The notes under the pieces were generated by a model. The model was not told where the DNA came from and ran no database searches. It saw nothing but the letters and a program-made list of their open reading frames with translations. The translations under genes and the position numbers were made by a program. DNA of 64,000 nucleotides from an uncultured Alphaproteobacteria bacterium (GTDB lineage Bacteria; Pseudomonadota; Alphaproteobacteria; Micavibrionales; UBA2020), in contig CBIHNF010000001.1 of the NCBI GenBank assembly GCA_966211335.1, positions 76,078-140,077 on the forward strand, written 5' to 3'. Position 1 is the first letter of the stretch. The number at the start of each line of letters is the position of its first letter. Positions 18,761-47,920 of this stretch are shown in pieces.

Positions 18761-19204
18761 ATGCCGTTCTTCAATGATTTCAAACGCCGCAGCGCCGGCG
18801 GCCCCTATGTCGACATGGGCACGACCGCCTGGCTCGACGACAAGGAAGAAGCCCACCGCGACGGCGACCTGCCCGCCGTCATCACCGAGAATGGCGACCG
18901 CGGCTGGTACCAGCACGGAAAACTGCACCGCATCGGCGCCCCCGCCATCGAGCATAAAGACGGCGGCTGGGAATACTTTGAAAATGACAAGCCCCACCGC
19001 TACGGCGCGCCGGCGGTTCATAAAGCCGACGGCACGGATGAATATTACCTCGAGGGCAAAAAGCTCGACGACAAAGGCATCAAAGCCATGTTCGACGAGA
19101 TCGCCCGTAAAGAAGGCATTTTAACCGGCGCCGAAGTCGTGGCCGAAATGCGCCAGGGCGCGAGCCATGCGATGAAGCCGTTGAAGACAGTTCGTTTTAA
19201 ATAG
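18761..19204 (+). CDS. Hypothetical protein with three HRxGxPA repeats and a basic C-terminal tail
   Basis: HRDGDLPAV.../HRIGAPAI.../HRYGAPAV... units of about 23 aa; ends MKPLKTVRFK. Confidence 0.8.
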   Translation: MPFFNDFKRRSAGGPYVDMGTTAWLDDKEEAHRDGDLPAVITENGDRGWYQHGKLHRIGAPAIEHKDGGWEYFENDKPHRYGAPAVHKADGTDEYYLEGKKLDDKGIKAMFDEIARKEGILTGAEVVAEMRQGASHAMKPLKTVRFK

Positions 19205-19212
19205 AAGTTGCT

Positions 19213-19893
19213 ATGAATTTTAAGAGCACCAACTTTATTTTAGTCGGGCTAACCCTTGCTGCCGTTTTCACGTTCTTCTTATTGCAATCCAGCCACCAGC
19301 CGCACGAGGTCGGGCCAAATTGGCCTGAAGGGGACAAGCTGAGATTGTTCACGACTCTCAGTTTCAGCGGCAGCCTAGAAGTGAATGACCAGCGGTTCGT
19401 TACTAAGCTCAGCAGCGGCGCATTTGATAAGGTGGTTTTTGAGGCGTGCAGTGGGCAATTTAAAAAAGACCCCAAATTCCAAGGCATTCAAATTTTTCAC
19501 ACCGATAAAGAAACGGTTTACCAAAGTCATCCCTTGAATTTAGGAATAAAATTTTCTTTAATGCCGGTAAAGACTTTAGCCTATCAAGATGGGCGCGGCG
19601 GTATTACCTATACCTTTTTACGCAGCCAAAAAGCGCTGAAGCTCTTGGAAAAACAGCAGTCAGGAAATGAACCAGAATTAGATAGCGCAGCCCCCGCAAA
19701 TAATGGGACGGAGGTTTTTGCGAGCAGTACGCTACCTGGCGACCCATGTTATCCTGATGCAGATCAATCTCCTGACGAATTTAAAAATTCGATCAAAGCC
19801 TGCATCTCGCATTACTGTAAAAATATTGCGGATGACGCCGAGCCAGCTTTAGAAAATGCCCAAAGGCTGGAACGCTCCCTTCGAGAGAAGTAA
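19213..19893 (+). CDS. AT-rich orphan protein with N-terminal membrane anchor
   Basis: 226-aa ORF, hydrophobic N-terminus, Cys-containing C-terminal part, AT-rich codons. Confidence 0.6.
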   Translation: MNFKSTNFILVGLTLAAVFTFFLLQSSHQPHEVGPNWPEGDKLRLFTTLSFSGSLEVNDQRFVTKLSSGAFDKVVFEACSGQFKKDPKFQGIQIFHTDKETVYQSHPLNLGIKFSLMPVKTLAYQDGRGGITYTFLRSQKALKLLEKQQSGNEPELDSAAPANNGTEVFASSTLPGDPCYPDADQSPDEFKNSIKACISHYCKNIADDAEPALENAQRLERSLREK

Positions 19894-20024
19894 TTCGGAC
19901 TTTTACAAGATTTACGCCGCGTTTGATTTATGTCAAAAGCCCGCAAGCCTTGATACCCCTGTCAATCCTTGTTAAGTAAAGGCCAAGTTTATCGGCGCTT
20001 TATTATTGAAGGGGCACAATCACC

Positions 20025-20966
20025 ATGAAAGCTTTCGTATTCCCGGGCCAGGGCAGCCAGTCGGTCGGCATGGGCAAGGAATTGGCCGAGGCTTTTCCGG
20101 TGGCGAAGCTGGTGTTTCAGGAAGTGGACGATGCGCTGTCGCAAAAACTTTCCAAGATGATTTTTGAAGGCCCCGATACGGAGCTGAACCTGACGGAAAA
20201 CACCCAGCCCGCGCTGATGGCCGTTTCTGTCGCCGTCGCGCGCATTCTGCAGCAGGCGAAAGCGGACCTTCTCACCCCTGCCGTCTGCAAATTCGTGGCG
20301 GGGCATTCGCTGGGCGAATATTCGGCCCTCACCGCCGCGGGTTCCTTCAACCTTGCGGATGCGGCGCGGCTTTTGAAAACGCGCGGACAGGCAATGCAGA
20401 AAGCGGTACCGGTGGGCGTCGGCGCCATGGCCGCCATTCTGGGCCTTGAAATGCCGGATGTGCAGGCGATTGTGAAAGAAGCCTCGGGCACCGATATTGT
20501 CGCCGCCGCGAATGACAATTCCTTCGGCCAGATCGTGATTTCGGGCCACAAGGCCGCCGTTGACAAAGCCATCGGCCTTGCGACCGCCAAGGGAGCTAAA
20601 CGCGCAATCCTCCTCCCCGTTTCCGCCCCGTTCCACTGCGCGCTGATGCAGCCGGCGGCGGAGGTGATGGCGAAAGCCCTTTCGGAAGTGAATATCAACG
20701 CGCCTTCCGTGCCGCTGGTTGCCAACGTGATTGCATCGGAAGTCATCGACCCCGCGCGCATCCGCCAGTTGCTGGTGGAGCAGGTGACGGGCATGGTGCG
20801 CTGGCGTGAATCCGTCCTTTACATGAAAACGCAAGGCGTGACGGAGCTGATCGAGCTGGGCGCCGGCAAAGTTTTGAACGGCCTCACCAAACGCATTGAT
20901 GGCGAGCTGACCGGTCGCGCCATTAACAGCCCGAAAGATATCGAAGAATTCGCGGCGACGCTTTAA
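20025..20966 (+). CDS. fabD: Malonyl-CoA:ACP transacylase
   Basis: FPGQGSQ, TENTQPAL, AGHSLGEY, VSAPFHC. Confidence 0.97.
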   Translation: MKAFVFPGQGSQSVGMGKELAEAFPVAKLVFQEVDDALSQKLSKMIFEGPDTELNLTENTQPALMAVSVAVARILQQAKADLLTPAVCKFVAGHSLGEYSALTAAGSFNLADAARLLKTRGQAMQKAVPVGVGAMAAILGLEMPDVQAIVKEASGTDIVAAANDNSFGQIVISGHKAAVDKAIGLATAKGAKRAILLPVSAPFHCALMQPAAEVMAKALSEVNINAPSVPLVANVIASEVIDPARIRQLLVEQVTGMVRWRESVLYMKTQGVTELIELGAGKVLNGLTKRIDGELTGRAINSPKDIEEFAATL

Positions 20967-21409
20967 TGGCGTTTTTGCTCTATGCCTTTGGCGCTTCGCT
21001 CTGCTGGGGCGTGAGCTATACGATATCGGAGCAGCTGCTGCGCAAGATTTCCGTCGCCTCCGTCATGGTGACGACATCGGTTGCGACGCTTTGCTTCGCG
21101 CTGTGCCTCGGGCTTGCCGGCAATAACTTCGCAGCGGATTTCGAGACGCTCAAGAAAACTTCCGGCGCGGGCTCCCTCGTCCTTATCTCCATCATCGTCT
21201 ATGTCGCGGCGAACTGCTTTATTCTGCTCTCGACCAAGGCGAAGAACGCGACCATGGCGGCTATGGTGGAAATCACCTATCCGCTCTTCACCGCCCTATT
21301 CGCCTGGCTGTTCTTTAAGGAAGTGCAGGTCACGGCCGGCACCGTGCTGGGTGCGCTGCTGATACTTGCGGGCGTCAGCTGTATCTATTATTTTGGCAAA
21401 AGTCTCTAA
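20966..21409 (+). CDS. EamA/DMT-family small membrane transporter
   Basis: Five hydrophobic segments, ITYPLFTALFAWLFFKE, GALLILAG; TAATG overlap with fabD. Confidence 0.8.
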   Translation: MAFLLYAFGASLCWGVSYTISEQLLRKISVASVMVTTSVATLCFALCLGLAGNNFAADFETLKKTSGAGSLVLISIIVYVAANCFILLSTKAKNATMAAMVEITYPLFTALFAWLFFKEVQVTAGTVLGALLILAGVSCIYYFGKSL

Positions 21410-21429
21410 CCCATAAGGATTAAAAAACC

Positions 21430-22167
21430 ATGTTCAATCTTTCCGGTAAAAAAGCGCTTGTCACGGGTGCCTCTGGCGGCATCGGCGGCGCGATTGCGAA
21501 GGCGCTGCATGCGCAAGGAGCCGATGTGGGCCTCTCCGGCCGGAATGTGGAGGCGCTGGAAAAGCTGGCCGCCGAAATCGGCTCCCGCTGCTTCGTGCTG
21601 CCGGGCGACCTGAATACGGCGGAAGCGGCCGATGCGCTGATCAAATCAGCGGAAGAGAAAATGGGACAGGTGGATATCCTCGTCAACAACGCGGGCCTGA
21701 CGAAAGACGGTTTGTTCATGCGCATGAAGGATGACGACTGGCAGGTGGTACAGGATGTAAACCTGACCGCGCCCTTCCGCCTGATCCGCGCTGCGATCAA
21801 AGGCATGATGAAGCGCCGCTTCGGCCGCATCATCAACATCACCTCCGTCGTTGGCGTCACGGGCAACCCCGGGCAGGCGAACTATTGCGCTTCCAAAGCG
21901 GGCATGATCGGCATGAGCAAATCCATGGCGGCGGAAGTCGCCTCCCGCGGCATCACGGTCAACTGCGTCGCCCCCGGCTTCATCGCGACCGCGATGACGG
22001 AAGCGCTGAATGACGACCAGAAAGCCAAAATCAACGCGACCATCCCCGCCGGCGCCATGGGCACGCCCGAAGACATCGCGGCTTCTTGCGTCTACCTCGC
22101 CTCCGATGAAGGCAAATACGTCACCGGCCAGACCATTCATGTGAATGGCGGCATGGCGATGATTTGA
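21430..22167 (+). CDS. fabG: 3-oxoacyl-ACP reductase
   Basis: TGASGGIG, NNAGLTKD, NYCASKAG, VAPGFI. Confidence 0.97.
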   Translation: MFNLSGKKALVTGASGGIGGAIAKALHAQGADVGLSGRNVEALEKLAAEIGSRCFVLPGDLNTAEAADALIKSAEEKMGQVDILVNNAGLTKDGLFMRMKDDDWQVVQDVNLTAPFRLIRAAIKGMMKRRFGRIINITSVVGVTGNPGQANYCASKAGMIGMSKSMAAEVASRGITVNCVAPGFIATAMTEALNDDQKAKINATIPAGAMGTPEDIAASCVYLASDEGKYVTGQTIHVNGGMAMI

Positions 22168-22532
22168 GCTCATGGGAAGTGGCAAATCGCGCAGAAAAAA
22201 TTGACGGCATTATACGAAGGTACAATCTCTTTTTTGTAATTCTCGTTCTAACTGTTTATTCGTTCTGCCTTAGTGTTTTGCCCGTGTTCTTTAACTGGGC
22301 AAAGTCGATTGGCAGTATGTTGCCACCGCCTTTTCTGTTTTTCTGCAGCACCTTTGAGATAATTGGCCGTCATCCCTTGTTTTATCTTTCGGGATGCACT
22401 GCTTATTACGTTCTTTCAGTAAAAATCCTGAAGCCCAGCACCGCGACTATTGTGAATATTGCGCTGCTCGCCGTTTTTACACTAGCACTGCTGATCCTGA
22501 GCGGGCCGTTTCCCTCTCAGCTGCATGATTGA
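22164..22532 (+). CDS. AT-rich orphan membrane protein
   Basis: TTG start overlapping the fabG TGA; about three hydrophobic segments; AT-rich. Confidence 0.5.
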   Translation: MSSWEVANRAEKIDGIIRRYNLFFVILVLTVYSFCLSVLPVFFNWAKSIGSMLPPPFLFFCSTFEIIGRHPLFYLSGCTAYYVLSVKILKPSTATIVNIALLAVFTLALLILSGPFPSQLHD

Positions 22533-22551
22533 GTGAAATTTGGGATAGATC

Positions 22552-22731
22552 TTAGTTCAGGTATCTGCGGACTTTGTCCGGCTCGGGGCCCATGAGTTCT
22601 ACCGCTTCGATAAGCTCAGGCTGGGAGACGCCGAATTCTTCCATCCAGTAGTGGACGGCGTGGGCTTCTGCGAGGGAAATCTGGCCGTGGGTGCCGGTAT
22701 AGAACGGTTGCTGGTTCATGACTTGGCTCAT
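22552..22731 (-). CDS. DUF3606-like small protein (59 aa, below the ORF-track cutoff)
   Basis: Manual translation MSQVMNQQPFYTGTHGQISLAEAHAVHYWMEEFGVSQPELIEAVELMGPEPDKVRRYLN matches the I.L.....V.YW...GVS..EL..AV...G.....VR.YL pattern. Confidence 0.8.
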   Translation of the reverse strand: MSQVMNQQPFYTGTHGQISLAEAHAVHYWMEEFGVSQPELIEAVELMGPEPDKVRRYLN

Positions 22732-22753
22732 GCGTTGTTGCCGTTACCAGACT

Positions 22754-22779
22754 AACGGGGACCCAAAACTGGCGGTTCC
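22754..22779 (-). promoter_or_regulatory. EcfG/SigT general-stress sigma promoter
   Basis: Minus strand GGAAC-N17-CGTT, about 22 nt upstream of the DUF3606-like start. Confidence 0.75.
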
Positions 22780-22864
22780 TGTAACATCCTATAGTATTGA
22801 TTAAATTGGAAAATATCAGCTCGGTCGCTCATTGTTGCAGCCTTTCATTTTGTTCCCAATTTTG

Positions 22865-22894
22865 TTGACATAACGCCAGAATCGCAATTATACT
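22865..22894 (+). promoter_or_regulatory. Near-consensus sigma70 promoter
   Basis: TTGACA-N18-TATACT. Confidence 0.65.
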
Positions 22895-23027
22895 TTGCCC
22901 TGCCGATGGTTACTCCGGCAGCGCGGTTTTGCCCCCTTTGGGGCTTATGTTTCTCGCCTGCCTCTTCAGCCCCGGTAAAACAGCCATGAACAACCCGCAA
23001 CCCTTCATAACCTTGAAAGGATGACGC

Positions 23028-23417
23028 ATGTCTGACGATACCTCGAATTTTAAATCCAATACCGGCATGGCGGAACTGGCCCTGTTCGCAGTGACCCTGT
23101 CGCTGGAAAAGCAAATGAAGGGCATCCGCGAGGCGCGCACGGTGCTGGGGGCGACCTTCGGCGCGATCGTCAACGGACAGCGTATTCTGAAGGACATCAA
23201 ATTCTGCGCGGAAGAAATGGGGCTTTCCATCCCGAAGGGGGAAGACTCCATCAAAACGCTGCAGCGACTTGTCGATGCCGCCGATGCCAGAGGCATTGAT
23301 ACCACCCGCATCAAGAAGACGATGAAGGATGTCGTGGAGATCAATCGGCAGGTGGAAGGCAGCCGCGCCGGCCCCTATAAAACCATCCAGATCGCCCGCC
23401 GCCATTTCAACGGGTAA
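23028..23417 (+). CDS. Hypothetical helical protein
   Basis: 129-aa ORF, AAGGA RBS, host-like codons; ends GPYKTIQIARRHFNG. Confidence 0.7.
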   Translation: MSDDTSNFKSNTGMAELALFAVTLSLEKQMKGIREARTVLGATFGAIVNGQRILKDIKFCAEEMGLSIPKGEDSIKTLQRLVDAADARGIDTTRIKKTMKDVVEINRQVEGSRAGPYKTIQIARRHFNG

Positions 23418-23639
23418 ATTTGTACCGAATTGAATCTAGGGCAGAATTCGGAACGGGGTGGAATTCCGCCATTCCTCGCACCAGCTTATTTCTTGACATA
23501 AGGCGCCAAAACCGCTTATGACAAGGGCAGATTGGATGTTTGCAAACATGGAAACTGTGTGATAATTACACCCTCACCTGTAAAATGCAGCGCTAGAACA
23601 TACGACCAAATATAACCTAACACCGAACGAGGAAATGCA

Positions 23640-23882
23640 ATGAGCAACGTCAACGAACGCGTCAAGAAAATCGTGGTAGAGCACCTCGGAGTCGATGGCG
23701 CAAAAGTCACCGATAACGCCAGCTTTATCGACGATCTGGGCGCAGACAGCCTCGACACCGTCGAGCTGGTCATGGCATTTGAGGAAGAATTCGGCATCGA
23801 AATTCCCGATGACGCGGCTGAAAAAATCCAGACCGTGAAAGACGCAATCTCGTTCATCCAGCAGAACGCGAAAGCCGCTTAA
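23640..23882 (+). CDS. acpP: Acyl carrier protein
   Basis: [20 protein letters not shown]. Confidence 0.98.
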
Positions 23883-23900
23883 CATCGCCTGATACATTTG

Positions 23901-23941
23901 AAAAATGGCCCCTTCTTTTTAAAAAGACCGGGGCCATTTTT
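23901..23941 (+). terminator. Intrinsic terminator or hairpin after acpP
   Basis: AAAAATGGCCCC...GGGGCCATTTTT. Confidence 0.8.
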
Positions 23942-23976
23942 CTTATCAGCCTTTTTACCAATTTTCGGAGTTTTCA

Positions 23977-25248
23977 ATGCGGCGCGTCGTCGTTACCGGC
24001 ATGGGGATTGTCAGCCCGCTCGGCCTTGGCCTCGAGCATAACTGGCAGGCACTGACCAACAGCAAATCGGGCATCAGCCAGATCCACCTGTTCGACGCCT
24101 CCGACATTCCGTCCCGCATCGCGGGCCAGGTGCCGCGCGCGTCGGAAACCGCGACCGGCCCCAACGTCCTCGACCTCAATAAATACATCGAACATAAAGA
24201 GCAGAAGAAGATGGATGACTTCATCCACTTCGGCTATGTCGCGGCGGTGGATGCCGTGGAAGATTCCGGCTGGAAGCCGATCGACCATGAAGACCAGTGC
24301 CGCACCGGCGTGCTGATCGGCTCCGGCATCGGCGGCCTCACCAATATTCAAGACACTTCCATCATGATGCAGGAAAAGGGCACGCGCCGCATATCGCCGT
24401 TCTTCATCCCCTCCTCCCTCATCAACCTGATTTCGGGTCAGGTTTCCATCCGCTACGGCTTCAAGGGGCCGAACCATGCGGTGGTCACGGCCTGCGCGAC
24501 CGGCACCCATGCGATTGGTGACGCTGCGCGCCTGATCGCTTTTGATGATGCCGATGTGATGGTGGCGGGCGGCGCGGAAGCCGCCATTTGCCGCGTCGGC
24601 GTTGCGGGCTTTGCCGCCTGCCGCGCCCTATCGACTGGTTATAACGACACGCCCGAAAAAGCATCCCGCCCGTTCGACAAAAACCGCGACGGCTTCGTGA
24701 TTGGCGAAGGCGCCGGTGTTGTGGTGCTGGAAGAATATGAGCACGCCAAGAAACGCGGCGCGAAAATTTACGCGGAAGTGATTGGCTATGGCCTGTCGGG
24801 CGATGCCTATCACGTCACATCGCCCTCCGAAGACGGCGACGGCGGTTTCCGCGCCATGAAGGCGGCGCTGAAACGCGCCAATATTTCGCCGGATCAGGTT
24901 GATTACATCAACGCGCATGGCACCTCGACCCCGCTGGGTGACGACATTGAACTTGGCGCGGTGAAGCGCATGTTTGGCGATGCGCTTAAAAAGACCAGCA
25001 TTTCCTCCACCAAATCCGCCATCGGTCACCTGCTCGGCGCGGCGGGGGCGGTGGAAGCGATCTTCAGCGTGAAGGCGATCGAGACCGGCGTTGTGCCGCC
25101 GACCTTGAACCTCGATGACCCGACCGATGTGGCGGCGGGGCTTGATCTTGTGCCGCATACCGCAAAGCAGCGCAAAGTCGATATTGCCCTCTCCAACTCC
25201 TTCGGCTTCGGCGGCACCAACGCGACGCTGATTTTCAAGAAAGTCTAA
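23977..25248 (+). CDS. fabF: Beta-ketoacyl-ACP synthase II
   Basis: VTACATG, NAHGTST, KSAIGHLLGAAG, SNSFGFGG. Confidence 0.97.
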   Translation: MRRVVVTGMGIVSPLGLGLEHNWQALTNSKSGISQIHLFDASDIPSRIAGQVPRASETATGPNVLDLNKYIEHKEQKKMDDFIHFGYVAAVDAVEDSGWKPIDHEDQCRTGVLIGSGIGGLTNIQDTSIMMQEKGTRRISPFFIPSSLINLISGQVSIRYGFKGPNHAVVTACATGTHAIGDAARLIAFDDADVMVAGGAEAAICRVGVAGFAACRALSTGYNDTPEKASRPFDKNRDGFVIGEGAGVVVLEEYEHAKKRGAKIYAEVIGYGLSGDAYHVTSPSEDGDGGFRAMKAALKRANISPDQVDYINAHGTSTPLGDDIELGAVKRMFGDALKKTSISSTKSAIGHLLGAAGAVEAIFSVKAIETGVVPPTLNLDDPTDVAAGLDLVPHTAKQRKVDIALSNSFGFGGTNATLIFKKV

Positions 25249-25251
25249 ATC

Positions 25252-26238: not shown

Positions 26239-26268
26239 TTCGGCTATATATTTAAGGTGTTAGCGGGC

Positions 26269-26283
26269 TTACCAATCCGTTAA
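26269..26283. promoter_or_regulatory. CtrA-like box with one mismatch, upstream of yqgE
   Basis: TTAC-N7-TTAA, intergenic. Confidence 0.35.
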
Positions 26284-26307
26284 GGCTTTTCTGTTAGCAT
26301 ATTCCTT

Positions 26308-26919: not shown

Positions 26920-26922
26920 AGT

Positions 26923-27525: not shown

Positions 27526-27604
27526 GGTGACCTCGGCATATGCGCCTAAAAATAACTGTTATTCAGGATTATATCTTCTATATTGGGGGTCAAGAAGGGG
27601 CTTT

Positions 27605-36660: not shown

Positions 36661-37989
<1,329 letters not shown>

Positions 37990-39863: not shown

Positions 39864-39870
39864 TACCGGT

Positions 39871-40146: not shown

Positions 40147-40149
40147 GGG

Positions 40150-40584
40150 TTAACCCGTCTGCAGCAGCGCGGAGGCCGCGTTGATATATTTGCGCCCCGC
40201 TTCCTGACCCGAGAGCGCCGCCTGTGACAGTGTTTCCGTCTGGCGCGCGGAGGCGAGCTTGATGAGCATCGGCAGGTTGATGCCGGCCAGCGCCTCGATC
40301 TTTTTATCCTGCGTGATCGAAATCGCGAGGTTCGACGGGGTGCCACCGAACATATCGGTCAAAACCAGCACGCCCTTGCCGCTGTCGACATCTTTCGCTT
40401 TCTGGATGATTTCGAGGCGTTTTTGCTCGAGATCGTCATCGGGCATCATGCAGACGGCGGCGATCTGCTTTTGCGGCCCCACGATGTGTTCCATGACGGA
40501 GACGAATTCATCCGCAAGGCGGCCATGCGTCACGATAACGATGCCGATGAGGCTGGCCGCGGGTTTATCTGTATCAGCTGTCAT
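40150..40584 (-). CDS. PTS EIIA, mannose type
   Basis: IGIVIVTHG, LTDMFGGTPSN, GINLPML; start 40584. Confidence 0.93.
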   Translation of the reverse strand: MTADTDKPAASLIGIVIVTHGRLADEFVSVMEHIVGPQKQIAAVCMMPDDDLEQKRLEIIQKAKDVDSGKGVLVLTDMFGGTPSNLAISITQDKKIEALAGINLPMLIKLASARQTETLSQAALSGQEAGRKYINAASALLQTG

Positions 40585-41537: not shown

Positions 41538-42022
41538 CAGTTCACCAGCAGGCCCGGCTTGGCGATGATTTCCAGCGCCTTGTTGATTTTCAGCATTGTC
41601 GAATTGTCAAAGGCGCAGAGGCGGTAGCGCGGCAGGGCGACGCCGAGAATCTCGAAGGTTTCAGGGTCCGGCAGGCGCGGCACTTCATCCCGCTTCACAA
41701 GGTCAATCACAAGGCTGACGCGCGTTGCCGGCGCGACGGGGTAGCGCAACAGGCCGATGCCGCGCACCTCCAGCAGGCCGCGGATGCTTTCGACATGATC
41801 GGCGTAAATGCGGTTGTGGCGCTTTTCAAAACCGACCTGGTCATCGCAAATCAGCTGCCCGCCCGCCTCGATCAGCCGGAAGGCAAGGTCGGACTTGCCG
41901 GCGCCGGACAGGCCGCGCAGAAAAATACAAGCCGCTTCCCCGCCGACAGGGCGCAGCAGCACGGCGGTGCCATGCAGCGTCGTCTTCGTCGGTTCCGGCG
42001 GCGGTGTGCGCGTGATACCCAA
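41537..42022 (-). CDS. hprK: Short alphaproteobacterial HPr kinase/phosphorylase
   Basis: LHGTAV, GLSGAGKSDLA, LICDDQV, GLLEVRGIG; TTG start inferred. Confidence 0.88.
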   Translation of the reverse strand: MGITRTPPPEPTKTTLHGTAVLLRPVGGEAACIFLRGLSGAGKSDLAFRLIEAGGQLICDDQVGFEKRHNRIYADHVESIRGLLEVRGIGLLRYPVAPATRVSLVIDLVKRDEVPRLPDPETFEILGVALPRYRLCAFDNSTMLKINKALEIIAKPGLLVN

Positions 42023-42042
42023 GGGTTGGCCTTTAACAGGAA

Positions 42043-43401
42043 TTAAGCGGCTTCGTTGATCTTCAGGGCGTGCCCGACAAGATAGAGCGACCCTGTTATG
42101 ATTATACGCTGCGGGGCCTTGAATTGGAAGGTAAGAGCGCGGATGGCGCTTTCCAGATTGGGTGCAGGCCGCGCATCGGCAAAGCCCGCGCCTTTCAAAT
42201 AATTGCAAAGTTCATCGGCCGAGAGCATGGGCGCATCAATATTGGCGTCCACCGCCTGAATGGTGACGGGAATACCGGCTAGCTTCTCATAAAAATTGTC
42301 GGGTTCCTTGCGGCGCTTGTAGCCCGTAATGATATGCGGCGGTTTGTCCGCCCCCCAGGCCTTGACCTGCGCCATCAACACTTCCGCGCCGCTGTCGTTA
42401 TGCGCGCCGTCGACCCAGAGTTCCCAGCCGGAAGGCAGTAATTTTGCCAGCGCGCCGGACTCCAGCCGCTGCAGGCGGCCCTGCCAGCGCACGCTGTTCA
42501 TGGCTTTCGTCAGCACAGGTTCGGAAAGGCAGGTCATGAAGGGGCTTTGCGCAATTGCGGCAATGGCCGTGCCCGCGTTGACGACTTGGTGACTACCCAA
42601 GAGGCGCGGCAGCGGCAGGCTGAATTCCATGCCGCGGGCGCGATAGATGAAACCCTTGTCGTCTTCTTCAACCGACCATTCACGGTTGGCAAGAAACATC
42701 GGCGCATGCAGTGCGGCGGCGCGGGTTTCAAAAATTTTCAAGACGTCATTATCCGTCTGCGGCGCGACGATAACGGGGCAGTTTTGCTTGATGATGCCAG
42801 CCTTGTTTTCGGCAATCAGCGGCAGGGTTGCGCCCAAGAGGCGCATGTGGTCGAAAGAAATACGCGTCAGCAGGCTGATGCTTTTTTCAACCACGTTGGT
42901 CGCGTCATAGGTGCCGCCAAGGCCGGTTTCCAGCAGCACGGCATCCGCCTTGTGGCGTTGGAAAGCGAGGAAGGTAAGTGCGGTGAAGAATTCGAAGAAG
43001 GATACGGGTTCATCCCCGCCTGCCGCTTCACATTCATCAATCAGCGAGAGCAGCAAATCATCGGAGATTTCCTTGCCGCCGATGACGATGCGTTCTTCAA
43101 ACCGCACCAGATGCGGGGAAATGAATTTATGGACAGTGAGTCCCGCTGATTCCAGAATGGCCTGAATAAAGGCGAGGGAGGAGCCCTTGCCATTGGTGCC
43201 CGCCACATGAAAAACCGGCTGCAAATGGAGGTGTGGATTGCCAAGGTTTTCGAGGAAATTCTGGAAGCGTGACAGCCCCGCCGGCAGCATGGGTTCATGC
43301 TTTTCGCGCACAGCAGTAATTGCGTTTTCAACCGCAGGATTGGGCGAATAGGTATATTCGGTTAAGGGCGCTTGCTCGGCGATTTTCAGCGGCTCGGGCA
43401 T
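42043..43401 (-). CDS. folC: Folylpolyglutamate/dihydrofolate synthase
   Basis: VAGTNGKGS, SPHLVRFEERI, ETGLGG, WQGRLQ, DGAHN. Confidence 0.96.
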   Translation of the reverse strand: MPEPLKIAEQAPLTEYTYSPNPAVENAITAVREKHEPMLPAGLSRFQNFLENLGNPHLHLQPVFHVAGTNGKGSSLAFIQAILESAGLTVHKFISPHLVRFEERIVIGGKEISDDLLLSLIDECEAAGGDEPVSFFEFFTALTFLAFQRHKADAVLLETGLGGTYDATNVVEKSISLLTRISFDHMRLLGATLPLIAENKAGIIKQNCPVIVAPQTDNDVLKIFETRAAALHAPMFLANREWSVEEDDKGFIYRARGMEFSLPLPRLLGSHQVVNAGTAIAAIAQSPFMTCLSEPVLTKAMNSVRWQGRLQRLESGALAKLLPSGWELWVDGAHNDSGAEVLMAQVKAWGADKPPHIITGYKRRKEPDNFYEKLAGIPVTIQAVDANIDAPMLSADELCNYLKGAGFADARPAPNLESAIRALTFQFKAPQRIIITGSLYLVGHALKINEAA

Positions 43402-43419
43402 TGAAAATCCTTTGCGACG

Positions 43420-44328
43420 TCAGCCTTCGCCTTTTTTGCGGGCATCAGGTGGGCGTTTGTGTTCCGCCATGCCGCTGCGCTTTTGCGTCAGCAGCTGCAG
43501 GATGGTGACAAGCTTCTGGCGCAAATCACCGCGCGGTACGACAAGATCCACCATGCCATGCGCCTGCAGGTATTCCGCCGTCTGGAAGCCTTCTGGCAGC
43601 TGGGCGCGGATGGTTTCCTGAATGACGCGGCGACCGGCAAAGCCGATCTGCGCGCCGGGTTCGGCAATATGCAGGTCGCCAAGCATCGCGAAAGAGGCGG
43701 AAACGCCGCCGGTGGTTGGGTCGGTCAGCAGCACAATATAGGGCAGGCCCGCTTCCTTCACCTGTTCGACCGCGATGACGGAGCGCGGCATCTGCATCAG
43801 GGAAATCATACCCTCCTGCATGCGCGCGCCGCCCGAAGCAGGGATGACGATATAGGGCGCTTTGAGGGAGACAGCGAGGCGCGCGCCGGTGATCAAACCG
43901 TCACCCACCGCCGCACCCATGGAGCCGCCCATGAAGTCGAAATTGAAAGCAGCGATGACGACGGGCGATCCGCCCATCAACCCGTTGGCCACAACAATCG
44001 CGTCCTTCTTGCCGGTTTCGGTCTGGGCGTCCTTCAGGCGGTCGGCGTATTTTTTGCGGTCGCGGAATTTGAGCGGGTCATGCACGGGTTTCGGCAAATC
44101 GGATTCTGTATAGATGCCGGAATCAAACAGCATCTTCAGCCGCTCCTCCACGCTCATGCGCAGGTGGTAGCCGCAGTGGTGGCAGACGTTGAGGTTCTTC
44201 ACCAGTTCCTGGTGGTGCAGCATGGTCTCGCAGCCGGGGCACTTCTGCCAGAGGTTGTCGGGGACATCCTTCTTGGCGGTGATGAGGGCCTTGATCTTGG
44301 GCCGGACGAAGTTCGTAATCCAGTTCAT
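43420..44328 (-). CDS. accD: Acetyl-CoA carboxylase carboxyltransferase beta subunit
   Basis: CPGC...CHHC zinc finger, FMGGSMG, SGGARMQEG, IGFAGRRV. Confidence 0.97.
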   Translation of the reverse strand: MNWITNFVRPKIKALITAKKDVPDNLWQKCPGCETMLHHQELVKNLNVCHHCGYHLRMSVEERLKMLFDSGIYTESDLPKPVHDPLKFRDRKKYADRLKDAQTETGKKDAIVVANGLMGGSPVVIAAFNFDFMGGSMGAAVGDGLITGARLAVSLKAPYIVIPASGGARMQEGMISLMQMPRSVIAVEQVKEAGLPYIVLLTDPTTGGVSASFAMLGDLHIAEPGAQIGFAGRRVIQETIRAQLPEGFQTAEYLQAHGMVDLVVPRGDLRQKLVTILQLLTQKRSGMAEHKRPPDARKKGEG

Positions 44329-44413
44329 GCGCGGGGTCTGTCCTTGTGAGGAAAAGCCGTTTCAGAAGGGCAATTTCTAACATAAGGGGGGCTTGTTGCG
44401 GCAGAAAATATTG

Positions 44414-44430
44414 GTTTTTATTGCCATAAT
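44414..44430 (+). promoter_or_regulatory. 17-bp motif GTTTTTATTGCCATAAT, copy 2
   Basis: Identical to 18701-18717; 11 nt upstream of TTGACA-N17-TACAAA (44442-44470). Confidence 0.6.
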
Positions 44431-44511
44431 ATGCCATGGCGTTGACATAACCGCCTTAGGGGCGTACAAATAAATGACCCCGTTAACCTTTTGCAGAAGA
44501 TGCTCTTCCCC

Positions 44512-44772
44512 ATGGCCGGAAAGGTCCAGTTCAATACTGTCTCGCTGAATGCGCCGATGTCGCCGGAAGACATGGGGCGGCACCTGCTGCTGGAAGCCTG
44601 CAAGGATTACCCCGATTTCCAAAAGGCCCTCGGCCTTATCGAATGCGGCGCGACGACCAATGTGCGGGACGACAATGGCTTCACCGCGCTGATGTGGGCG
44701 GTGACCAAGGGCCATGATGATCTGGCTGATGCCATCATCCAGCGCGGGCGTGAAGAAGATTATGCCGAATAG
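44512..44772 (+). CDS. Ankyrin-repeat ORF, upstream part (possibly the N-terminus of a split gene)
   Basis: GATTNVRDDNGFTALMWAVTKGHDDLA; start codon uncertain (44491, 44500 or 44512). Confidence 0.75.
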   Translation: MAGKVQFNTVSLNAPMSPEDMGRHLLLEACKDYPDFQKALGLIECGATTNVRDDNGFTALMWAVTKGHDDLADAIIQRGREEDYAE

Positions 44773-45391
44773 CCCCAACCCCAATTCGCCCTTCCGGCTG
44801 GGCCAGTCGCTGCTGCGCGAATTGCAGGATGCGGAGGGCGATGCCGATACCGCCATCAAGCTCATTGCCCTTGGCGCGGATGCGAATGCGGAAGATATGC
44901 ATGGCTTGAGCTGCCTTGCCATCGCCGCGCGCCGCGGCTGGGCGGATGTGACGGCGGCGCTGCTGCAGTCCGACGCAAAAGTCGACTGGCGCAACCAGGA
45001 CGGCTGGACGCCGCTGCTCTGGGCCGTCACCAACGGTCACACGGCCGTCGCGGAAGTTTTGCTGAAATACAAAGCCGATGTGAACGCGCAGAACGAGAAC
45101 AGCGATACGCCCCTTATCATGGCGACGATGATCGATGATGAACCTGTCCGTGTTCCCATGGCGAAACTGCTGCTGAAACACGGCGCGGATGTGACGATTG
45201 AAGGCAAGAACGGCCAGCGCGCCCATGAATCCGCGATCGAGCAGCATGATGATGCGATGATAAAATTATTGCAGCCCTTATTCGACCGCACCCAGCCGGC
45301 GATCACGCCCCGCGCGCTTCAGTCCGCGACAACGCTGGAGAAAGACCTGCGGCCGTTGAAACCTGTAAAGTTCAAGCCGCCCGGGCATTGA
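44762..45391 (+). CDS. Ankyrin-repeat protein with basic C-terminal tail
   Basis: DGWTPLLWAVTNGH, ADVNAQ...DTPLIMA, GQRAHESA; ends LRPLKPVKFKPPGH. Confidence 0.88.
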   Translation: MPNSPNPNSPFRLGQSLLRELQDAEGDADTAIKLIALGADANAEDMHGLSCLAIAARRGWADVTAALLQSDAKVDWRNQDGWTPLLWAVTNGHTAVAEVLLKYKADVNAQNENSDTPLIMATMIDDEPVRVPMAKLLLKHGADVTIEGKNGQRAHESAIEQHDDAMIKLLQPLFDRTQPAITPRALQSATTLEKDLRPLKPVKFKPPGH

Positions 45392-46094
45392 TGGACTGCA
45401 GAATTTCCGCCGCCGCCGCCGCAGGGTTTGCCGCCTGCGTAATCGGCCGGCCGATCACCAGATAATCCGCGCCCAGCGCCGCCGCCTCGACAGGCGTCAT
45501 AATGCGCTTCTGATCGCCCGCTGCACTTCCTGCAGGGCGAATGCCGGGAACGACGAGCAGCGTTTCGGGTTTCAGAATTTTGCGCAGCACGGCGATTTCC
45601 TGCGGCGAACAGACAATCCCGTGAAGGCCGCAGTCTTCAGCGAGTTTCGCGAGGTGCTGTACCTGTTCTGCTGCGGGAGCCTTCTGGCCGATTTCGCCAA
45701 GGTCCTTGTCATCCAGCGTGGTGAGGACAGTGACGCCAAGTAATTTCGGCGCGGCAACACTGTGTTCAACTGCGGCTTCGGCCGCCGCCTTCACCGCCGC
45801 CTGCATCATGGCACGGCCGCCGGAGGTGTGAATGGTGATGAAGTCCGGCGCGGCCTTGACGGCGGAGCGGATGGCGCCCGCAACCGTGTTGGGAATATCA
45901 TGTAATTTGAGGTCGAGGAAAATTTCAACCTTGCCACCCGCCGCCGTGCGCAGCTCTTTGATGCAGGCAGGACCTTCTGCGGTAAAAAGCTCGAGCCCGA
46001 TTTTAAAACCGAGGTTTGCGCCGGAGAGTTTTTCCACAAGTATTTTCGCCTCTGCAATATCCGCAGCGTCAATGGCGCAGAAAATACCTGTCAT
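45372..46094 (-). CDS. pyrF: Orotidine-5'-phosphate decarboxylase
   Basis: FKIGLE, DLKLHDIPNTV, VPGIRP, DQKR, VIGRPIT. Confidence 0.97.
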   Translation of the reverse strand: MTGIFCAIDAADIAEAKILVEKLSGANLGFKIGLELFTAEGPACIKELRTAAGGKVEIFLDLKLHDIPNTVAGAIRSAVKAAPDFITIHTSGGRAMMQAAVKAAAEAAVEHSVAAPKLLGVTVLTTLDDKDLGEIGQKAPAAEQVQHLAKLAEDCGLHGIVCSPQEIAVLRKILKPETLLVVPGIRPAGSAAGDQKRIMTPVEAAALGADYLVIGRPITQAANPAAAAAEILQSINARAA

Positions 46095-46105
46095 GGGAAA
46101 ATTCC

Positions 46106-46570
46106 TTATTTAATTTCGAAGATCGCATCCACCTCGACCGCCGCGCCGAGCGGCAAAGCGGCGACGCCGACGGCGGCACGCGCATGTTTACCAGCCTCCG
46201 CGAAAACCGCGACGATCAAATCAGACGCGCCGTTGATGACTTTGGGATGATCATAAAAATCATGCGTCGAGGCGACAAAGCCGCCGAGGCGCAGGCAGCG
46301 CGTAATGCGGCTAAGATCGCCGTTCAGCGCGGCATTCGCCTGCGCGATGATATTGATGGCGCAGGCCTTCGCTGCCTCCTGCCCTTCCTCGACCGACATA
46401 TTTTCCCCAAGCTGGCCTTTGATGAGATGGCCGTCTTTCGACGGCAGCTGGCCGGAGATATACAGAGTGTTGCCGGAAATGGTGTAGGGCACATAGTTGG
46501 CCAGCGGCGCCGCCAGCTGCGGCAGCACGATGTTGAGGGCAGTGAGGCGTTCGGAAATTTTGTCGGACAT
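46106..46570 (-). CDS. RidA/YjgF family protein
   Basis: ANYVPY, YISGQLP, FYDHPKVINGASDL, HARAAVG. Confidence 0.93.
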   Translation of the reverse strand: MSDKISERLTALNIVLPQLAAPLANYVPYTISGNTLYISGQLPSKDGHLIKGQLGENMSVEEGQEAAKACAINIIAQANAALNGDLSRITRCLRLGGFVASTHDFYDHPKVINGASDLIVAVFAEAGKHARAAVGVAALPLGAAVEVDAIFEIK

Positions 46571-46637
46571 GAAAAAGCTCCTTTAGCGATGAACCTAAAG
46601 GAGCTTATGCCGTCATGCAACGGTGGCTTGAAGCGAC

Positions 46638-46811
46638 CTACATATTGCTGAGGTCGAGCTTGGCGAAATTGTTGTATTCAACGTCCGGCGCGACGGTTGC
46701 GACCATCACTTCCTTGCGCGGCGAGGAGGCGGAAAAGCCGGAGCGGAGATCCGGCATGCTGGCAGCCCAGGCCTCGGCTTCGGGGAAGTTTGCTTCTTTA
46801 ATGACGTTCAT
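46638..46811 (-). CDS. Untracked 57-aa hypothetical protein
   Basis: Manual translation MNVIKEANFPEAEAWAASMPDLRSGFSASSPRKEVMVATVAPDVEYNNFAKLDLSNM; host-like GC3; AAGG upstream. Confidence 0.6.
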   Translation of the reverse strand: MNVIKEANFPEAEAWAASMPDLRSGFSASSPRKEVMVATVAPDVEYNNFAKLDLSNM

Positions 46812-46870
46812 GTTGTGCCTTGCCTTCTTTACGCCGGTAAGATGCGCTTCTTTATTCTGGTAATAGGTTC

Positions 46871-46903
46871 AGTATAGGCTTTGAAAGATTAACACAGCGT
46901 TAA
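46871..46903 (-). promoter_or_regulatory. Perfect CtrA box plus -10 element
   Basis: TTAA-N7-TTAA at 46889-46903, then 12 nt, then TATACT (46871-46876) on the minus strand. Confidence 0.75.
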
Positions 46904-47086
46904 GATTGGCAGCGTTCAAGTGGCTTGAGAATATATTTTAAGTAATTGAAAATATAAGGAAATGTAGTGGGAACTTTGTCCATTTCATATGTTTTACATA
47001 TTATTTGCTATTTTAAGCCTCTTTCGGCATAATGTTGCTCACCTTTCCGCGGGGAGAATCGGCAAGGGCATCTAGGGGGAAGAATC

Positions 47087-47920
47087 ATGAGTTTGCTGAA
47101 AGCCATCTTTAATCGCGCCGCGCCTGCGCTGACGCCGGAGCAACAGCTGGCGCTGGATACTGCGCTGCTGGATGCCGCCCAGTTCAATAATGTCGAGAAG
47201 ATAAAAGAGCTGCTGGACAAGGGCGCCAATATCAACGCCCGCGCGCCGAATACGGAAGACACTCCCCTCATCATCGCCAGCCGCGAAGACGATCTGGCAG
47301 ATGTCGTCAACTTCCTGCTCGACCAGAAGCCCGACCTGACCCCCGTCAACAGCATCGGCCAGACGGCATTACACGTTATTCTGCGGGAGCATAACAGCGC
47401 TGCCTGCGCCATCCGCATGATTAACGCGGACGCGCCATTGAATGGACGCGACATGCACGGCGCGACCCCCGCCTTCTGGGCGGCGCAAGACGGCCGCACT
47501 GATGTAATGGAAGCGCTGATCGCCAAGGACGCCGACCTGACCATACCCAACAACGCGGGCGAACTGCCGCTGATGCATGCGACGAAACTGCCGCACCCCG
47601 CAACGGTTGCCGTGATGCTGAAAGCGAATGCCGGCATCGACGTGCCGGACGAGGAAGGCATGACGGGCCTGATGTGGTCTATTCTGCTGCACAAGCCCAA
47701 ACAGGCGATGTTGTACATAGAAGCGGGCTGCAACATTATGATGCAGAACAAAGCCGGCGAAAACGCGCTCGACCTTGCGAAAAAAGAAGGCCTTGATGAG
47801 GTTGCGACCGCCCTGCGCCTGAAGATGGCAGAAAATATGGCGCCGATTTTGGAAGGCGTCAAAATCAAGCCGATCAAAACCGTCCGCTTCGCCGCGAAGC
47901 CGCCGACGAGCTTGCGTTAA
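47087..47920 (+). CDS. Ankyrin-repeat protein with basic C-terminal tail
   Basis: GANINAR...DTPLIIA, GQTALH, GATPAFWAA, GELPLMHA, GMTGLMW; ends IKPIKTVRFAAKPPTSLR. Confidence 0.92.
   Translation: MSLLKAIFNRAAPALTPEQQLALDTALLDAAQFNNVEKIKELLDKGANINARAPNTEDTPLIIASREDDLADVVNFLLDQKPDLTPVNSIGQTALHVILREHNSAACAIRMINADAPLNGRDMHGATPAFWAAQDGRTDVMEALIAKDADLTIPNNAGELPLMHATKLPHPATVAVMLKANAGIDVPDEEGMTGLMWSILLHKPKQAMLYIEAGCNIMMQNKAGENALDLAKKEGLDEVATALRLKMAENMAPILEGVKIKPIKTVRFAAKPPTSLR

Follow-up and report, generated by a model that had tools for sequence, protein, structure and literature searches.

A basic C-terminal peptide of roughly 15 residues, …R-x-Φ-K-P-Φ-K-T-V-R-F-K-x-P, is carried by about 38 otherwise unrelated soluble proteins of this Micavibrio-like genome and is confined to their C-termini. 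We consider this tag, with a probability of about 0.6, a new, basic and sharply defined candidate translocation signal of a Dot/Icm-type type IVB secretion system (T4BSS). The proposal combines the positional enrichment of the tag, the selection on its peptide and the substrate-like character of its carriers with the T4BSS machinery, the linkage of tag genes to it, the concerted evolution of the tag and features on the receptor side.

Three of the tagged genes lie in the window, the 64,000-nucleotide stretch of DNA analysed here (Table 1). The sequence-only reading had named four proteins in it as sharing a C-terminal motif, (K/R)P(L/I)K(T/P)V(R/K)F. The motif is real; the tails of all four match the translations exactly. 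Its formula was essentially right for this genome, in which some 38 proteins with scattered genes bear one tag of the full form [KT]-R-[AGS]-Φ-[KRT]-P-Φ-[KR]-[TP]-[VP]-[RK]-F-[KRA]-[PK]-[PK], with the Phe 1 to 16 residues from the C-terminal end. P0001, P0002 and P0003 are members, while P0004 fell below the threshold of both the HMM and the position-specific scoring matrix (PSSM) and was rejected. Searches of Pfam and NCBIfam returned no match for P0004, the corresponding interval of the sister genome G001, which is syntenic, yielded no homologue, and, because opposite-strand ORFs overlap it, it is only a putative coding gene.

Table 1. Tag genes of the window, their tags and the fourth candidate.
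Feature	Positions	Strand	Description	C-terminal end or tag
P0001	18761..19204	+	147 aa; three MORN-type beta-hairpin repeats (HRxGxPA), long C-terminal helix (residues 104-136), predicted flexible tagged tail	...HAMKPLKTVRFK
Tag of P0001	19163..19201	+	core PLKTVRF 19178-19198; 39.2 bits; Phe 1 residue from end	ASHAMKPLKTVRFK
P0002	44714..45391	+	ankyrin-repeat protein, 225 aa from first ATG; Pfam Ank_2 E=7.7e-21	...DLRPLKPVKFKPPGH
Tag of P0002	45338..45388	+	core PLKPVKF 45353-45373; 34.1 bits; Phe 5 residues from end	TLEKDLRPLKPVKFKPPGH
P0003	47087..47920	+	ankyrin-repeat protein, 277 aa; Pfam Ank_2 E=4.5e-22; convergent with nrdJ-like gene	...KIKPIKTVRFAAKPPTSLR
Tag of P0003	47855..47917	+	core PIKTVRF 47870-47890; 35.6 bits; Phe 9 residues from end	EGVKIKPIKTVRFAAKPPTSLR
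P0004	23028..23417	+	outside the tag family; weaker fourth candidate of the sequence-only reading	...GPYKTIQIARRHFNG

The enrichment of the tag is far beyond chance. The expression P[LIVM]K[TPSA][VI][KR]F, run in six frames over the whole 3.07 Mb genome, matched 16 times compared to about 0.3 expected from composition (a rough estimate), and 15 of these matches sit 1 to 9 residues ahead of a stop codon, in ORFs that stay open for 97 codons or more before the match. When all ORFs were scanned with the PSSM (cut-off ≥12 bits), 43 matches emerged: 38 lie no more than 15 residues from the C-terminus, one lies at 16 residues and four are internal, even though the scan covered 8.4 times more internal than C-terminal positions (2,055,138 vs 243,232). 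Fourteen of the 38 C-terminal matches were outside the training set, and from those alone the enrichment is still about 30-fold. One PSSM match, a GH130 enzyme (C1:910607-911587), was discarded as a false positive; it has no Phe, and its conserved orthologue ends in an ordinary tail. At the motif, codons vary freely (Lys, 13 AAA and 17 AAG; Phe, 29 TTC and 7 TTT; Thr as ACC, ACA, ACG and ACT; Val as GTG, GTT, GTA and GTC), so that, as judged from codon usage, selection demonstrably acts on the peptide. Some carriers are tandem paralogues (C1:1051789-1054479, 1779095-1780499 and 68423-69507), as would be expected if the tag had no function and reflected chance, a repeated DNA element over gene ends or recent 3'-end duplication. 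We regard this as negligibly probable: the enrichment statistics contradict it, synonymous variation at the motif is free and there is no nucleotide repeat, at least four unrelated folds carry the tag, a second genome provides an independent replicate, and across 17 homologues the tag core is as conserved as the folded body (mean column identity in the P0001 orthologue alignment of 0.58 and 0.61, respectively, and 0.40 in the linker).

An AF2 model of P0001 built on a 17-sequence alignment (pLDDT 81.5) places the tag on a predicted flexible tail behind the long helix (pLDDT above 90 in the body, about 52 in the coil of the tail); its best fold matches, MORN1/MORN4, are weak (E ~0.02). Tagged proteins span 93-387 aa. 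None of the 39 PSSM matches has a Sec-like N-terminus or a transmembrane helix by hydropathy (highest 12-residue N-terminal Kyte-Doolittle mean, 1.78; no 19-residue window above 1.76); the lack of a Sec signal had been proposed for the window proteins. The carriers comprise 19 ankyrin proteins (half), three of MORN type, five or six CbbX/EccA-like AAA+ proteins (profile match to CbbX, E=1.4e-11) and orphans. Their last 25 residues have a net charge of +4.9, vs +1.1 genome-wide, and are rich in K, P and M, with KHPMWC residues at 31% vs 21%. The notion that the window genes are all insertions into conserved blocks did not hold: orthologues or positional equivalents occupy the same syntenic places in G001, and the window tag genes have a G+C of 0.582 vs a genome mean of 0.577. 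P0001 has a syntenic orthologue there, that of P0003 lies at G001:550687-551514 (E=1.2e-41), and the gap between accD and pyrF that houses P0002 holds a tagged gene in G001 as well. For P0002, position 44762 is an in-frame alternative to the start at 44714.

In sister species, the tag takes other forms. Within the P0001 family it reads KPL[KR]TV[RK]F in G000 and G004, KPLKAVRF in G009, RPLRMKF in G006 and AP[KR]TA[SRH]F in G001-type genomes, and other proteins of G009 and G006 end in KPLKPVRF and RP[ML]RPLRF, respectively. On the syntenic orthologues of the window genes, the G001 form is [AS]-A-P-[KR]-T-A-x-F. Searching 0.8 Mb of G001 (744 genes) with [AVSI][AS]P.[TVA][AV].F gave nine C-terminal and no internal matches, and a further scan added three dialect tails. 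Five pairs of syntenic orthologues change from the G000 to the G001 form, and in a sixth the G000 member is tagged and the G001 member has a basic, Pro-rich end without the Phe. DotO is 88% identical between species whose dialects differ. These comparisons demonstrate that from one sister species to another the tag shifts in concert across separate proteins, and the tag of this genome is one dialect of a genus-wide tag. Such a shift implies that a single co-evolving reader, encoded by the bacterium itself, would recognise the tag.

The concerted shift bears on two other explanations. A short linear motif acting after delivery on a target-cell protein, such as a mimic of the PP1-docking RVxF motif, would suit the ankyrin-rich repertoires typical of bacteria that manipulate eukaryotes; K-T-V-R-F fits the expression [RK]-x(0,1)-[VI]-{P}-[FW], as do 23 of the 38 tails of this genome. 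The K-P-P-R-F variants and all 12 tails of the G001 dialect (K-T-A-x-F) do not fit, however, and, because the RVxF groove of PP1 is nearly invariant across eukaryotes, a motif dictated by the target would not be expected to change jointly from one sister species to the next. Nor is there a reason why some 38 proteins should all keep a docking motif in their last 16 residues, and we hold this explanation to be very improbable. An intracellular docking or regulatory tag that involves no export (a degron, a polar-hub or membrane tether, or a chaperone handle) is unlikely but has more in its favour, given that degrons and docking tails are likewise short, flexible, basic-hydrophobic and C-terminal, and that AAA+ ATPase domains, present among the carriers, as a rule act in the cytoplasm of the cell that makes them. 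Core proteases and degrons are nevertheless highly conserved, and the dialect shift fits a fast-evolving dedicated reader better; prolines at fixed positions speak against an amphipathic membrane helix, and the preponderance of ankyrin and MORN repeat proteins among the carriers, together with the clustering of the genome's 81 ankyrin ORFs around the T4BSS, is typical of delivered effectors.

[quoted passage not shown] It is near-complete, with scattered loci: DotL matches R64 TrbC (E=1e-63), DotM matches Legionella DotM (6sz9_B, E=6e-23), and DotO, DotB, DotC, DotD, DotG, DotH, two DotI/IcmL and three DotA/TraY paralogues are also present. Searches of the genome found neither the VirB4 family (T4ASS) nor the T6SS sheath protein TssC, and FlhA occurs in one copy only; no injection-type system other than the T4BSS was found. 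It is ancestral to the whole order, and since DotO occurs in all 41 sampled genomes, there is no presence/absence contrast to correlate with the tag. An ankyrin gene that directly follows dotL, 0.45 kb behind it, is tagged here and in G009, and its orthologues in other genomes have degenerate versions. Of the 38 tag genes, six fall in the zones reaching 20 kb from T4BSS loci, and these zones cover 5.8% of the genome (p=0.02). The linkage speaks for a translocation signal; that the neighbourhood enrichment is modest counts against one, as do the failure to find a promoter motif common to the tag genes and the lack of a tag on about three quarters of the 81 ankyrin ORFs, including the cluster adjoining dotI-dotO, whose tails differ from it. 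The sequence-only assignment to type IV substrates stands as far as the ankyrin carriers, the secretion system and the tag gene behind dotL are concerned, and export itself is putative.

It is quite improbable that the tag serves export by other means, whether through a type I system, in vesicles or along a pathway not yet described. Type I signals are C-terminal and uncleaved, alphaproteobacterial ankyrin proteins such as the Orientia Anks and Ehrlichia Ank200 are among the substrates (PMC4315096, PMC3417381), and cultured Micavibrio aeruginosavorus has a complete type I system (PMC3189940). Those signals lack a consensus, are rich in LDAVTSIF and poor in KHPMWC, and are mostly borne by acidic proteins (PMC4315096), whereas the tag has a sharp consensus and is opposite in composition and charge; type I genes were not located in this genome.

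The T4BSS itself resembles that of Legionella and Coxiella in its homologous components and in a coupling protein with a long C-terminal extension, and its putative substrates resemble theirs in the extreme C-terminal position of the signal on soluble proteins without a Sec signal, many of them ankyrin proteins. Three Dot/Icm signals are described there: a hydrophobic residue close to the terminus, as in RalF; the E-block (EExxE), which basic patches on DotM recognise; and the FxxxLxxxK helix, which is recognised by LvgA bound to the tail of DotL (PMC7251119, PMC5802825). Unlike these fuzzy acidic or compositional signals, the tag is basic, contains Pro and has a sharp 15-residue consensus. 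Neither the E-block nor FxxxLxxxK occurs in any of the 38 tagged tails, and a hydrophobic residue at -3/-4 is not enriched (14 of 38, vs 46% genome-wide); the lack of likeness to all three counts against a translocation signal, and comparison with described signals and curated families gave no match.

The receptor side differs from that of Legionella. Three of the five E-block-binding Arg of Legionella DotM are non-basic here (R196->D, R197->Y, R315->T); a simple charge-inverted DotM was rejected, as its cytoplasmic domain is basic overall (pI 9.8). The C-terminal extension of DotL is acidic (pI 4.6) and has two to four conserved P-[LVI]-S-W-x-[DE]-V-I-G (Trp) repeats in place of the IcmSW/LvgA sites, and no IcmS homologue was detected in a search that had no positive control. 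DotM interfaces have been proposed to co-evolve with different tails (Meir et al. 2018, PMC5802825). We suggest that the tag would mark cytoplasmically made proteins as T4BSS substrates and would be read by the type IV coupling complex DotL-DotM, most plausibly at the acidic Trp-repeat extension of DotL.

Other type IV signals resemble the tag in part. VirB/D4 (type IVA) signals, such as the R-x7-R-x-R-x-R of Agrobacterium VirF, VirE2 and VirE3 or the BID domain with basic tail of the Bartonella Beps, are likewise net positive, extreme C-terminal, uncleaved and alphaproteobacterial, but in the tag Pro and Phe stand at invariant places, which goes beyond Arg spacing, its carriers share no BID-size domain, and the only type IV system found here is IVB. 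XVIPCD, a conserved C-terminal domain of about 120 residues read by VirD4, is found on the bacteria-killing X-T4SS effectors of Xanthomonas and Stenotrophomonas; like the tag on its candidate effectors, it is a recognisable C-terminal element on unrelated T4SS effectors of a bacterium that attacks bacteria, but it is a folded type IVA domain about eight times longer than the short linear peptide of this type IVB system. An element of this kind permits effectors to be discovered from sequence. In the kib T4BSS of Pseudomonas putida IsoF, a Dot/Icm-type machine is used against bacteria (PMC9519443, which also cites XVIPCD); it is a recently acquired island with one effector-immunity pair and no common tag described, whereas here the T4BSS is ancestral and tagged proteins number in the dozens. 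The kib system shows that eukaryotes are not the necessary target of a T4BSS, a point that matters for a predator of the Micavibrio kind, and the ankyrin, MORN and AAA+ proteins with the tag may be destined for another cell, be it that of a prey bacterium or of a eukaryote.

The four open reading frames in which the sequence-only reading had seen a shared basic C-terminal motif translate exactly as it wrote them, and the motif recurs throughout the genome under study (G000; 3.07 Mb in six contigs, 57.5% G+C, completeness 96.6%). When the whole genome was translated in all six frames, P[LIVM]K[TPSA][VI][KR]F matched 16 times, against a chance expectation of about 0.3, a rough estimate from composition. 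The suspected C-terminal enrichment was borne out genome-wide, with 15 of the 16 matches ending 1 to 9 residues before a stop codon and preceded by at least 97 open codons, and the sixteenth lying in a two-codon frame. More diverged members were recovered with an HMM and then with a position matrix, both built from the regex-positive tails. At 12 bits or more, the matrix found 38 matches within 15 residues of the C-terminus, one at 16 and 4 internal among all ORFs, in a scan where internal positions outnumbered C-terminal ones 8.4 to 1; 14 of the 38 were absent from the training set. A GH130 enzyme that lacks the Phe was rejected as a matrix false positive, which leaves a family of about 38 members whose tag Phe lies 1 to 16 residues from the end. 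The extended consensus, [KT]-R-[AGS]-Φ-[KRT]-P-Φ-[KR]-[TP]-[VP]-[RK]-F-[KRA]-[PK]-[PK], comes in two subtypes, K-T-V-R-F and K-P-P-R-F. P0004, proposed earlier as a fourth and weaker carrier, falls outside the family. Coordinates of these and the other features discussed are collected in the table.

Tag carriers, variable spots and T4BSS (Dot/Icm-type type IVB secretion system) loci in G000; C1 and C2 are contigs
Feature	Location	Description
P0001	window 18761-19204 (+)	MORN-type tag carrier
Low-G+C ORF	window 19213-19893	226 aa, N-terminal TM/signal-like
Low-G+C ORF	window 22164-22532	
P0004	window 23028-23417 (+)	outside the tag family
Low-G+C ORF	window 23516-23857	
P0002	window 44714-45391 (+)	ankyrin tag carrier
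Antisense ORF	window 47008-47877 (-)	289 aa
P0003	window 47087-47920 (+)	ankyrin tag carrier
Large ankyrin block	C1:486888-497794; also C1:509423-511572	350-765 aa
DotI, DotH, DotG	C1:498159-502584	R64 queries
DotO	C1:506334-509369	E=2e-97, R64 query
DotC, DotB	C1:586695-589135	R64 queries
ORF after dotB	C1:589139-589420	93 aa
DotM	C1:771952-773133	R64 query
DotL	C1:773675-776287	E=1e-63, R64 query
Ankyrin gene behind dotL	C1:776741-777460	
Tandem CbbX/EccA-like AAA+ domains	C1:1051789-1054479 and C1:1779095-1780499	209-255 aa
Three tandem DotA/TraY-like paralogues	C2:8627-19292	1030, 1280 and 1108 aa
DotA/TraY homologue	C2:11942-15784	R64 query

Likeness between carriers is restricted to about 15 residues, the preceding linker being unconserved. 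Over their last 25 residues, tagged proteins have a net charge of +4.9, compared to +1.1 genome-wide (p = 9e-18), and tagged tails are richer in KHPMWC residues (31% vs 21%) and poorer in LDAVTSIF residues (47% vs 51%). Every conserved residue is written with several synonymous codons (Lys AAA 13 and AAG 17; Phe TTC 29 and TTT 7; four kinds each for Thr and Val; Arg CGC, CGT and CGG), so that selection on the tag is at the peptide level and a DNA-repeat artefact is ruled out. The regions upstream of the tag genes contained no significant shared promoter motif after correction for about 4300 words, the best word being TTGACATA (6/33 regions vs 68/2819). A search of 1.84 billion representative proteins returned 10 matches at E ≤ 0.001, 9 of them C-terminal, with a tag profile whose 34 positions are too short to reach further in the database. 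The 5 inspected were proteins of G000 itself with different start codons, and 4 more have the lengths of G000 tag proteins.

The carriers are small proteins (93 to 387 aa) and, as the sequence-only reading had held for its four proteins, none has a Sec-like N-terminus; no TM-grade hydrophobic segment was found in any of them. Nineteen are ankyrin-repeat proteins and three contain the HRxGxPA repeat. The AlphaFold2 (AF2) model of P0001, computed from a 17-sequence alignment, shows a beta-hairpin repeat body predicted with confidence (pLDDT above 90), followed by a helix (residues 104-136) and then by a low-confidence coil that corresponds to the tag; in a fold search its best matches, although weak, were MORN1 and MORN4. 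The single-sequence model of P0003 was of low quality (pLDDT 45.6) and served only to show a coil tail. A four-paralogue tandem array and one or two further carriers are AAA+ domains of the CbbX/EccA type (profile matches at E = 1.4e-11 against CbbX, 4.4e-10 against EccA1); the small domains in the two tandem loci are all tagged and make unusual effector candidates. The remaining carriers had no match in Pfam or NCBIfam, where no model covers the tail or the orphan bodies. The tag is found on only about a quarter of the 81 ankyrin ORFs of G000, many of which cluster at C1:450-630 kb around T4BSS genes. The large ankyrin block directly upstream of dotI-dotO, outside the window, is kept in the sister species G001 and in G010 and G020, and its proteins have other tails (…KRYNPWGGGPYGGF, …EKSYKKYRP, …KAGKFSLKP). 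Several classes of tail may exist.

Contrary to the earlier suggestion, the tag genes are not insertions in conserved gene blocks. Their G+C content is 0.582 compared to 0.577 for the genome, and the window, which spans C1:76078-140077, is colinear with G001:514-556 kb; together, G+C and synteny rule out recent insertion or horizontal transfer. The places in this region that truly vary are the low-G+C ORFs (0.45-0.48 vs 0.58), which sit beside P0001 and within the fabD-fabG-acpP-fabF block, and the fabG-acpP gap, not the tag genes. For the 226-aa ORF among them, the syntenic site in G001 contains no homologue, and the fabG-acpP gap of G001 holds different genes, two paralogues ending …YLTKNTS[TP]VK. 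Length by itself would favour the antisense ORF that overlaps P0003 almost fully; it was rejected because Pfam ankyrin matches and an orthologue identify the plus-strand ORF as the true gene.

Comparison with congeners provides what we regard as the strongest evidence on the tag. Profiles built from G000 gave 23 hits in G009 (MAG Micavibrio sp. Chal_Metagen_Bin5), 19 in G004, 12 in G014, 10 in G006 and 8 in G003, again at the C-terminus with a shifted consensus such as KPLKPVRF in G009 and RP[ML]RPLRF in G006. The same profiles found nothing in G001, G002, G005, G007, G008, G010, G011 and G012, although ankyrin genes are as numerous in these eight as in the positive genomes. Homologues of P0001 in six of the negatives (G001, G002, G005, G007, G010, G012) carry a respelled tag, ...PKV[ST]AP[KR]TA[SRH]FSR. 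In 0.8 Mb of G001 (744 genes), the pattern [AVSI][AS]P.[TVA][AV].F occurred nine times within 28 residues of the C-terminus and never internally, and a six-frame scan of that sequence gave three more tails in this species-specific spelling, or dialect. The G000 HMMs were rejected as sole detector of the tag since they miss other dialects, which were seen only through orthologues and this 0.8 Mb of G001. At the syntenic sites in G001, the P0001 orthologue ends ...AAPRTASFSR, the P0003 orthologue ends ...LAAPATARFKPKQPVTE, and the accD-pyrF gap that holds P0002 contains a tagged gene ending ...IAAPAVARFRRAG. Further syntenic pairs read, in G000 and G001 respectively, GIKPMKTLRF and VSAPKTATF, SLKPVKTVTF and IAPRTASF, and NIKPLKPPRF and VPKDPARF. 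Within the P0001 family, mean column identity is 0.58 in the tag core, 0.61 in the folded body and 0.40 in the linker before the tag. That tags on different proteins shifted in the same way implies a common, bacterium-encoded reader co-evolving with them.

This pattern bears on the eukaryotic PP1-docking motif RVxF, a signal that the target would impose. K-T-V-R-F does fit it ([RK]-x(0,1)-[VI]-{P}-[FW]) in 23 of the 38 G000 tails; none of the 12 orthologous or dialect tails of G001 does, however, and one would not expect a motif imposed by the target to shift in concert or to be restricted to C-termini. We consider an export signal the best-supported reading of the tag, with a probability of roughly 0.6 judged from sequence evidence, and rank an intracellular degron or docking tag second. 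Uniform tails of other kinds were seen on ankyrin arrays farther afield: …GT[PR]xx[RH]KIRRPKxxAAP on at least eight proteins of G017, from another genus (loci L074-L075), and …INKAKNxVKxAKIxxIKNxRKI in G037 (locus L076). They hint that the family and order hold additional dialects or different tags.

A type IV route for the tag had been proposed from sequence, and G000 does encode a T4BSS with a coupling protein, identified by phmmer with the Tra/Trb proteins of the IncI plasmid R64 as queries. Its DotM matches the Legionella DotM of the coupling-complex structures 6sz9 and 7ovb (PDB 6sz9_B, E = 5.9e-23), and with Pfam, DotD and another DotI/IcmL were identified as well. There was no match to the VirB4 family (PF03135, CagE/TrbE/VirB4) in G000, although a control genome gave one, TssC was not found and there is a single FlhA, which leaves the T4BSS as the sole injection-type system detected. 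Two of the three tandem DotA/TraY-like paralogues flank the DotA gene; Legionella has one DotA. The 93-aa ORF after dotB, which starts MAEGGWHWRNTMKTVRFFIFDARA and has K-T-V-R-F at its N-terminus beside a TM segment, is probably IcmT/TraK-like by position, and its K-T-V-R-F, though the sole internal copy inside a T4BSS locus, is probably a coincidence.

DotO was present in 41/41 sampled genomes of the order (identity 59-98%), which makes co-occurrence of tag and T4BSS uninformative as a test; the machine is ancestral to the order. Most genomes of families f2-f8 (G025-G040) keep DotO at about 60% identity and are nearly devoid of ankyrin genes (0-3 candidates); G037 (176 candidates) is an exception, and 29 were counted in G031 and 11 in G033. 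Ankyrin expansion is a trait of family f1, and the ancestral T4BSS cargo is therefore something else. The M. aeruginosavorus genome paper reported no sign of a type III or type IV secretion system (PMC3189940), and a T4BSS was listed in passing for seven marine Micavibrionales MAGs (Needham et al. 2022, PMC9418006). Our literature search found no paper linking Micavibrio to T4BSS substrates or signals.

Tag genes lie near the machine more often than expected, with 6 of 38 no farther than 20 kb from T4BSS loci, which account for 5.8% of the genome (p = 0.02); this gives modest support. The ankyrin gene behind dotL ends ...VLQRGMNPVRTVRFKGPQ and its G009 orthologue ...VLQRNLKPLKPVRFGRG, and the orthologues that follow dotL in more distant genomes have related but degenerate basic tails, e.g. 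...LQKPVKPLRPVKIRPPKT and ...LQKDISVAKPVTVRRRAPK.

The tag itself is absent from the searchable literature and from curated families; on the export reading it would belong with the known C-terminal type IV translocation signals. Dot/Icm signals in general lie in the last 20-35 residues of soluble proteins without a Sec signal; the tag, with its Phe 1 to 16 residues from the end of such proteins, agrees with this, and G000 also encodes a T4BSS and coupling protein. It is unlike the individual signals described. No tagged protein has a Legionella E-block-like stretch (EExxE) in its last 30 residues or the LvgA-read FxxxLxxxK motif in its last 40 (0/38 each), and a RalF-type hydrophobic residue at -3/-4 is not enriched (14/38, compared to 46% of all proteins). 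VirB/D4 (T4ASS) signals share the net positive charge in their C-terminal 20-30 residues (+4.9 over the last 25 residues of tagged proteins), but no VirB/D4-type machine was detected in G000. Type I secretion (T1SS) likewise relies on signals at the C-terminus, and ankyrin proteins are among its exports in Rickettsiales; its signals, however, are C-terminal stretches of 50-60 residues without consensus, rich in LDAVTSIF and poor in KHPMWC (including K, P and M), on acidic proteins (PMC4315096), whereas the tag is strongly basic, sharply conserved and KHPMWC-rich. Sortase and exosortase tags (LPXTG, PEP-CTERM, GlyGly-CTERM) need a signal peptide, a C-terminal TM helix and a basic cluster, whereas the carriers lack a signal peptide and their tails a hydrophobic helix. 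The XVIPCD of X-T4SS effectors is a shared folded domain of about 120 residues, compared to the tag's roughly 15 residues after an unconserved linker.

Three signals are described for Legionella Dot/Icm (PMC7251119): a hydrophobic residue close to the C-terminus, FxxxLxxxK, which LvgA binds, and the acidic E-block, which docks on Arg patches in DotM (PMC5802825). At the positions of Legionella R196, R197, R217, R314 and R315, G000 DotM has D, Y, K, R and T in a pairwise alignment of low identity and hence approximate, suggesting that the E-block site is not kept. The idea of a simply charge-inverted DotM was rejected, as its cytoplasmic domain remains basic, with a pI of 9.8. DotL has an acidic C-terminal extension (pI 4.6) in which P-[LVI]-[ST]-W-x-[DE]-V-I-[GS] is repeated four times, two to four copies being kept across much of the order; among candidate sites where a basic-hydrophobic tail might dock, we favour this extension. 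Across loci L003-L036 and the G000 DotL, the first repeat (PLSWTEVIG) is missing from the G001-type loci L004, L005, L007, L008 and L010, whereas the genomes with a KP-type dialect, G000, G009 and G014, have it, a comparison confounded by phylogeny. A search for IcmS (PF12608), run without a positive control, gave no match. One could envisage Micavibrio-like bacteria using an adaptor-free, charge-inverted Dot/Icm recognition system, in which the acidic DotL extension itself would read a sharp basic peptide (a Pro and then the core [KR]-[TP]-[VA]-x-F), each of its two to four conserved P-[LVI]-S-W-x-[DE]-V-I-G repeats holding a single tail. The dialects of each species would then reflect joint evolution of tag and reader, and the ankyrin, MORN and small AAA+ cargo, injected into prey or an unrecognised eukaryotic host, would form the first effector repertoire of epibiotic bacterial predators to be defined from sequence. 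Taken as a whole, down to a tag-defined injected repertoire of a predator, we consider this scheme speculative and rather unlikely.

Signals of the Legionella and Coxiella T4BSS are fuzzy, so effectors there have to be found by machine learning and screening. If the tag is a translocation signal, effector repertoires would be legible straight from the genomes of a whole order, and a crisp linear tag would offer a simple peptide-receptor pair for studying substrate choice by a type IV coupling complex. The concerted shift between sister species would then be a natural co-evolution experiment, with signal and receptor changing together. For the epibiotic predator Micavibrio, whose means of killing and feeding are, to our knowledge, not established, an order-wide T4BSS with tagged cargo is a concrete, testable candidate mechanism of predation.
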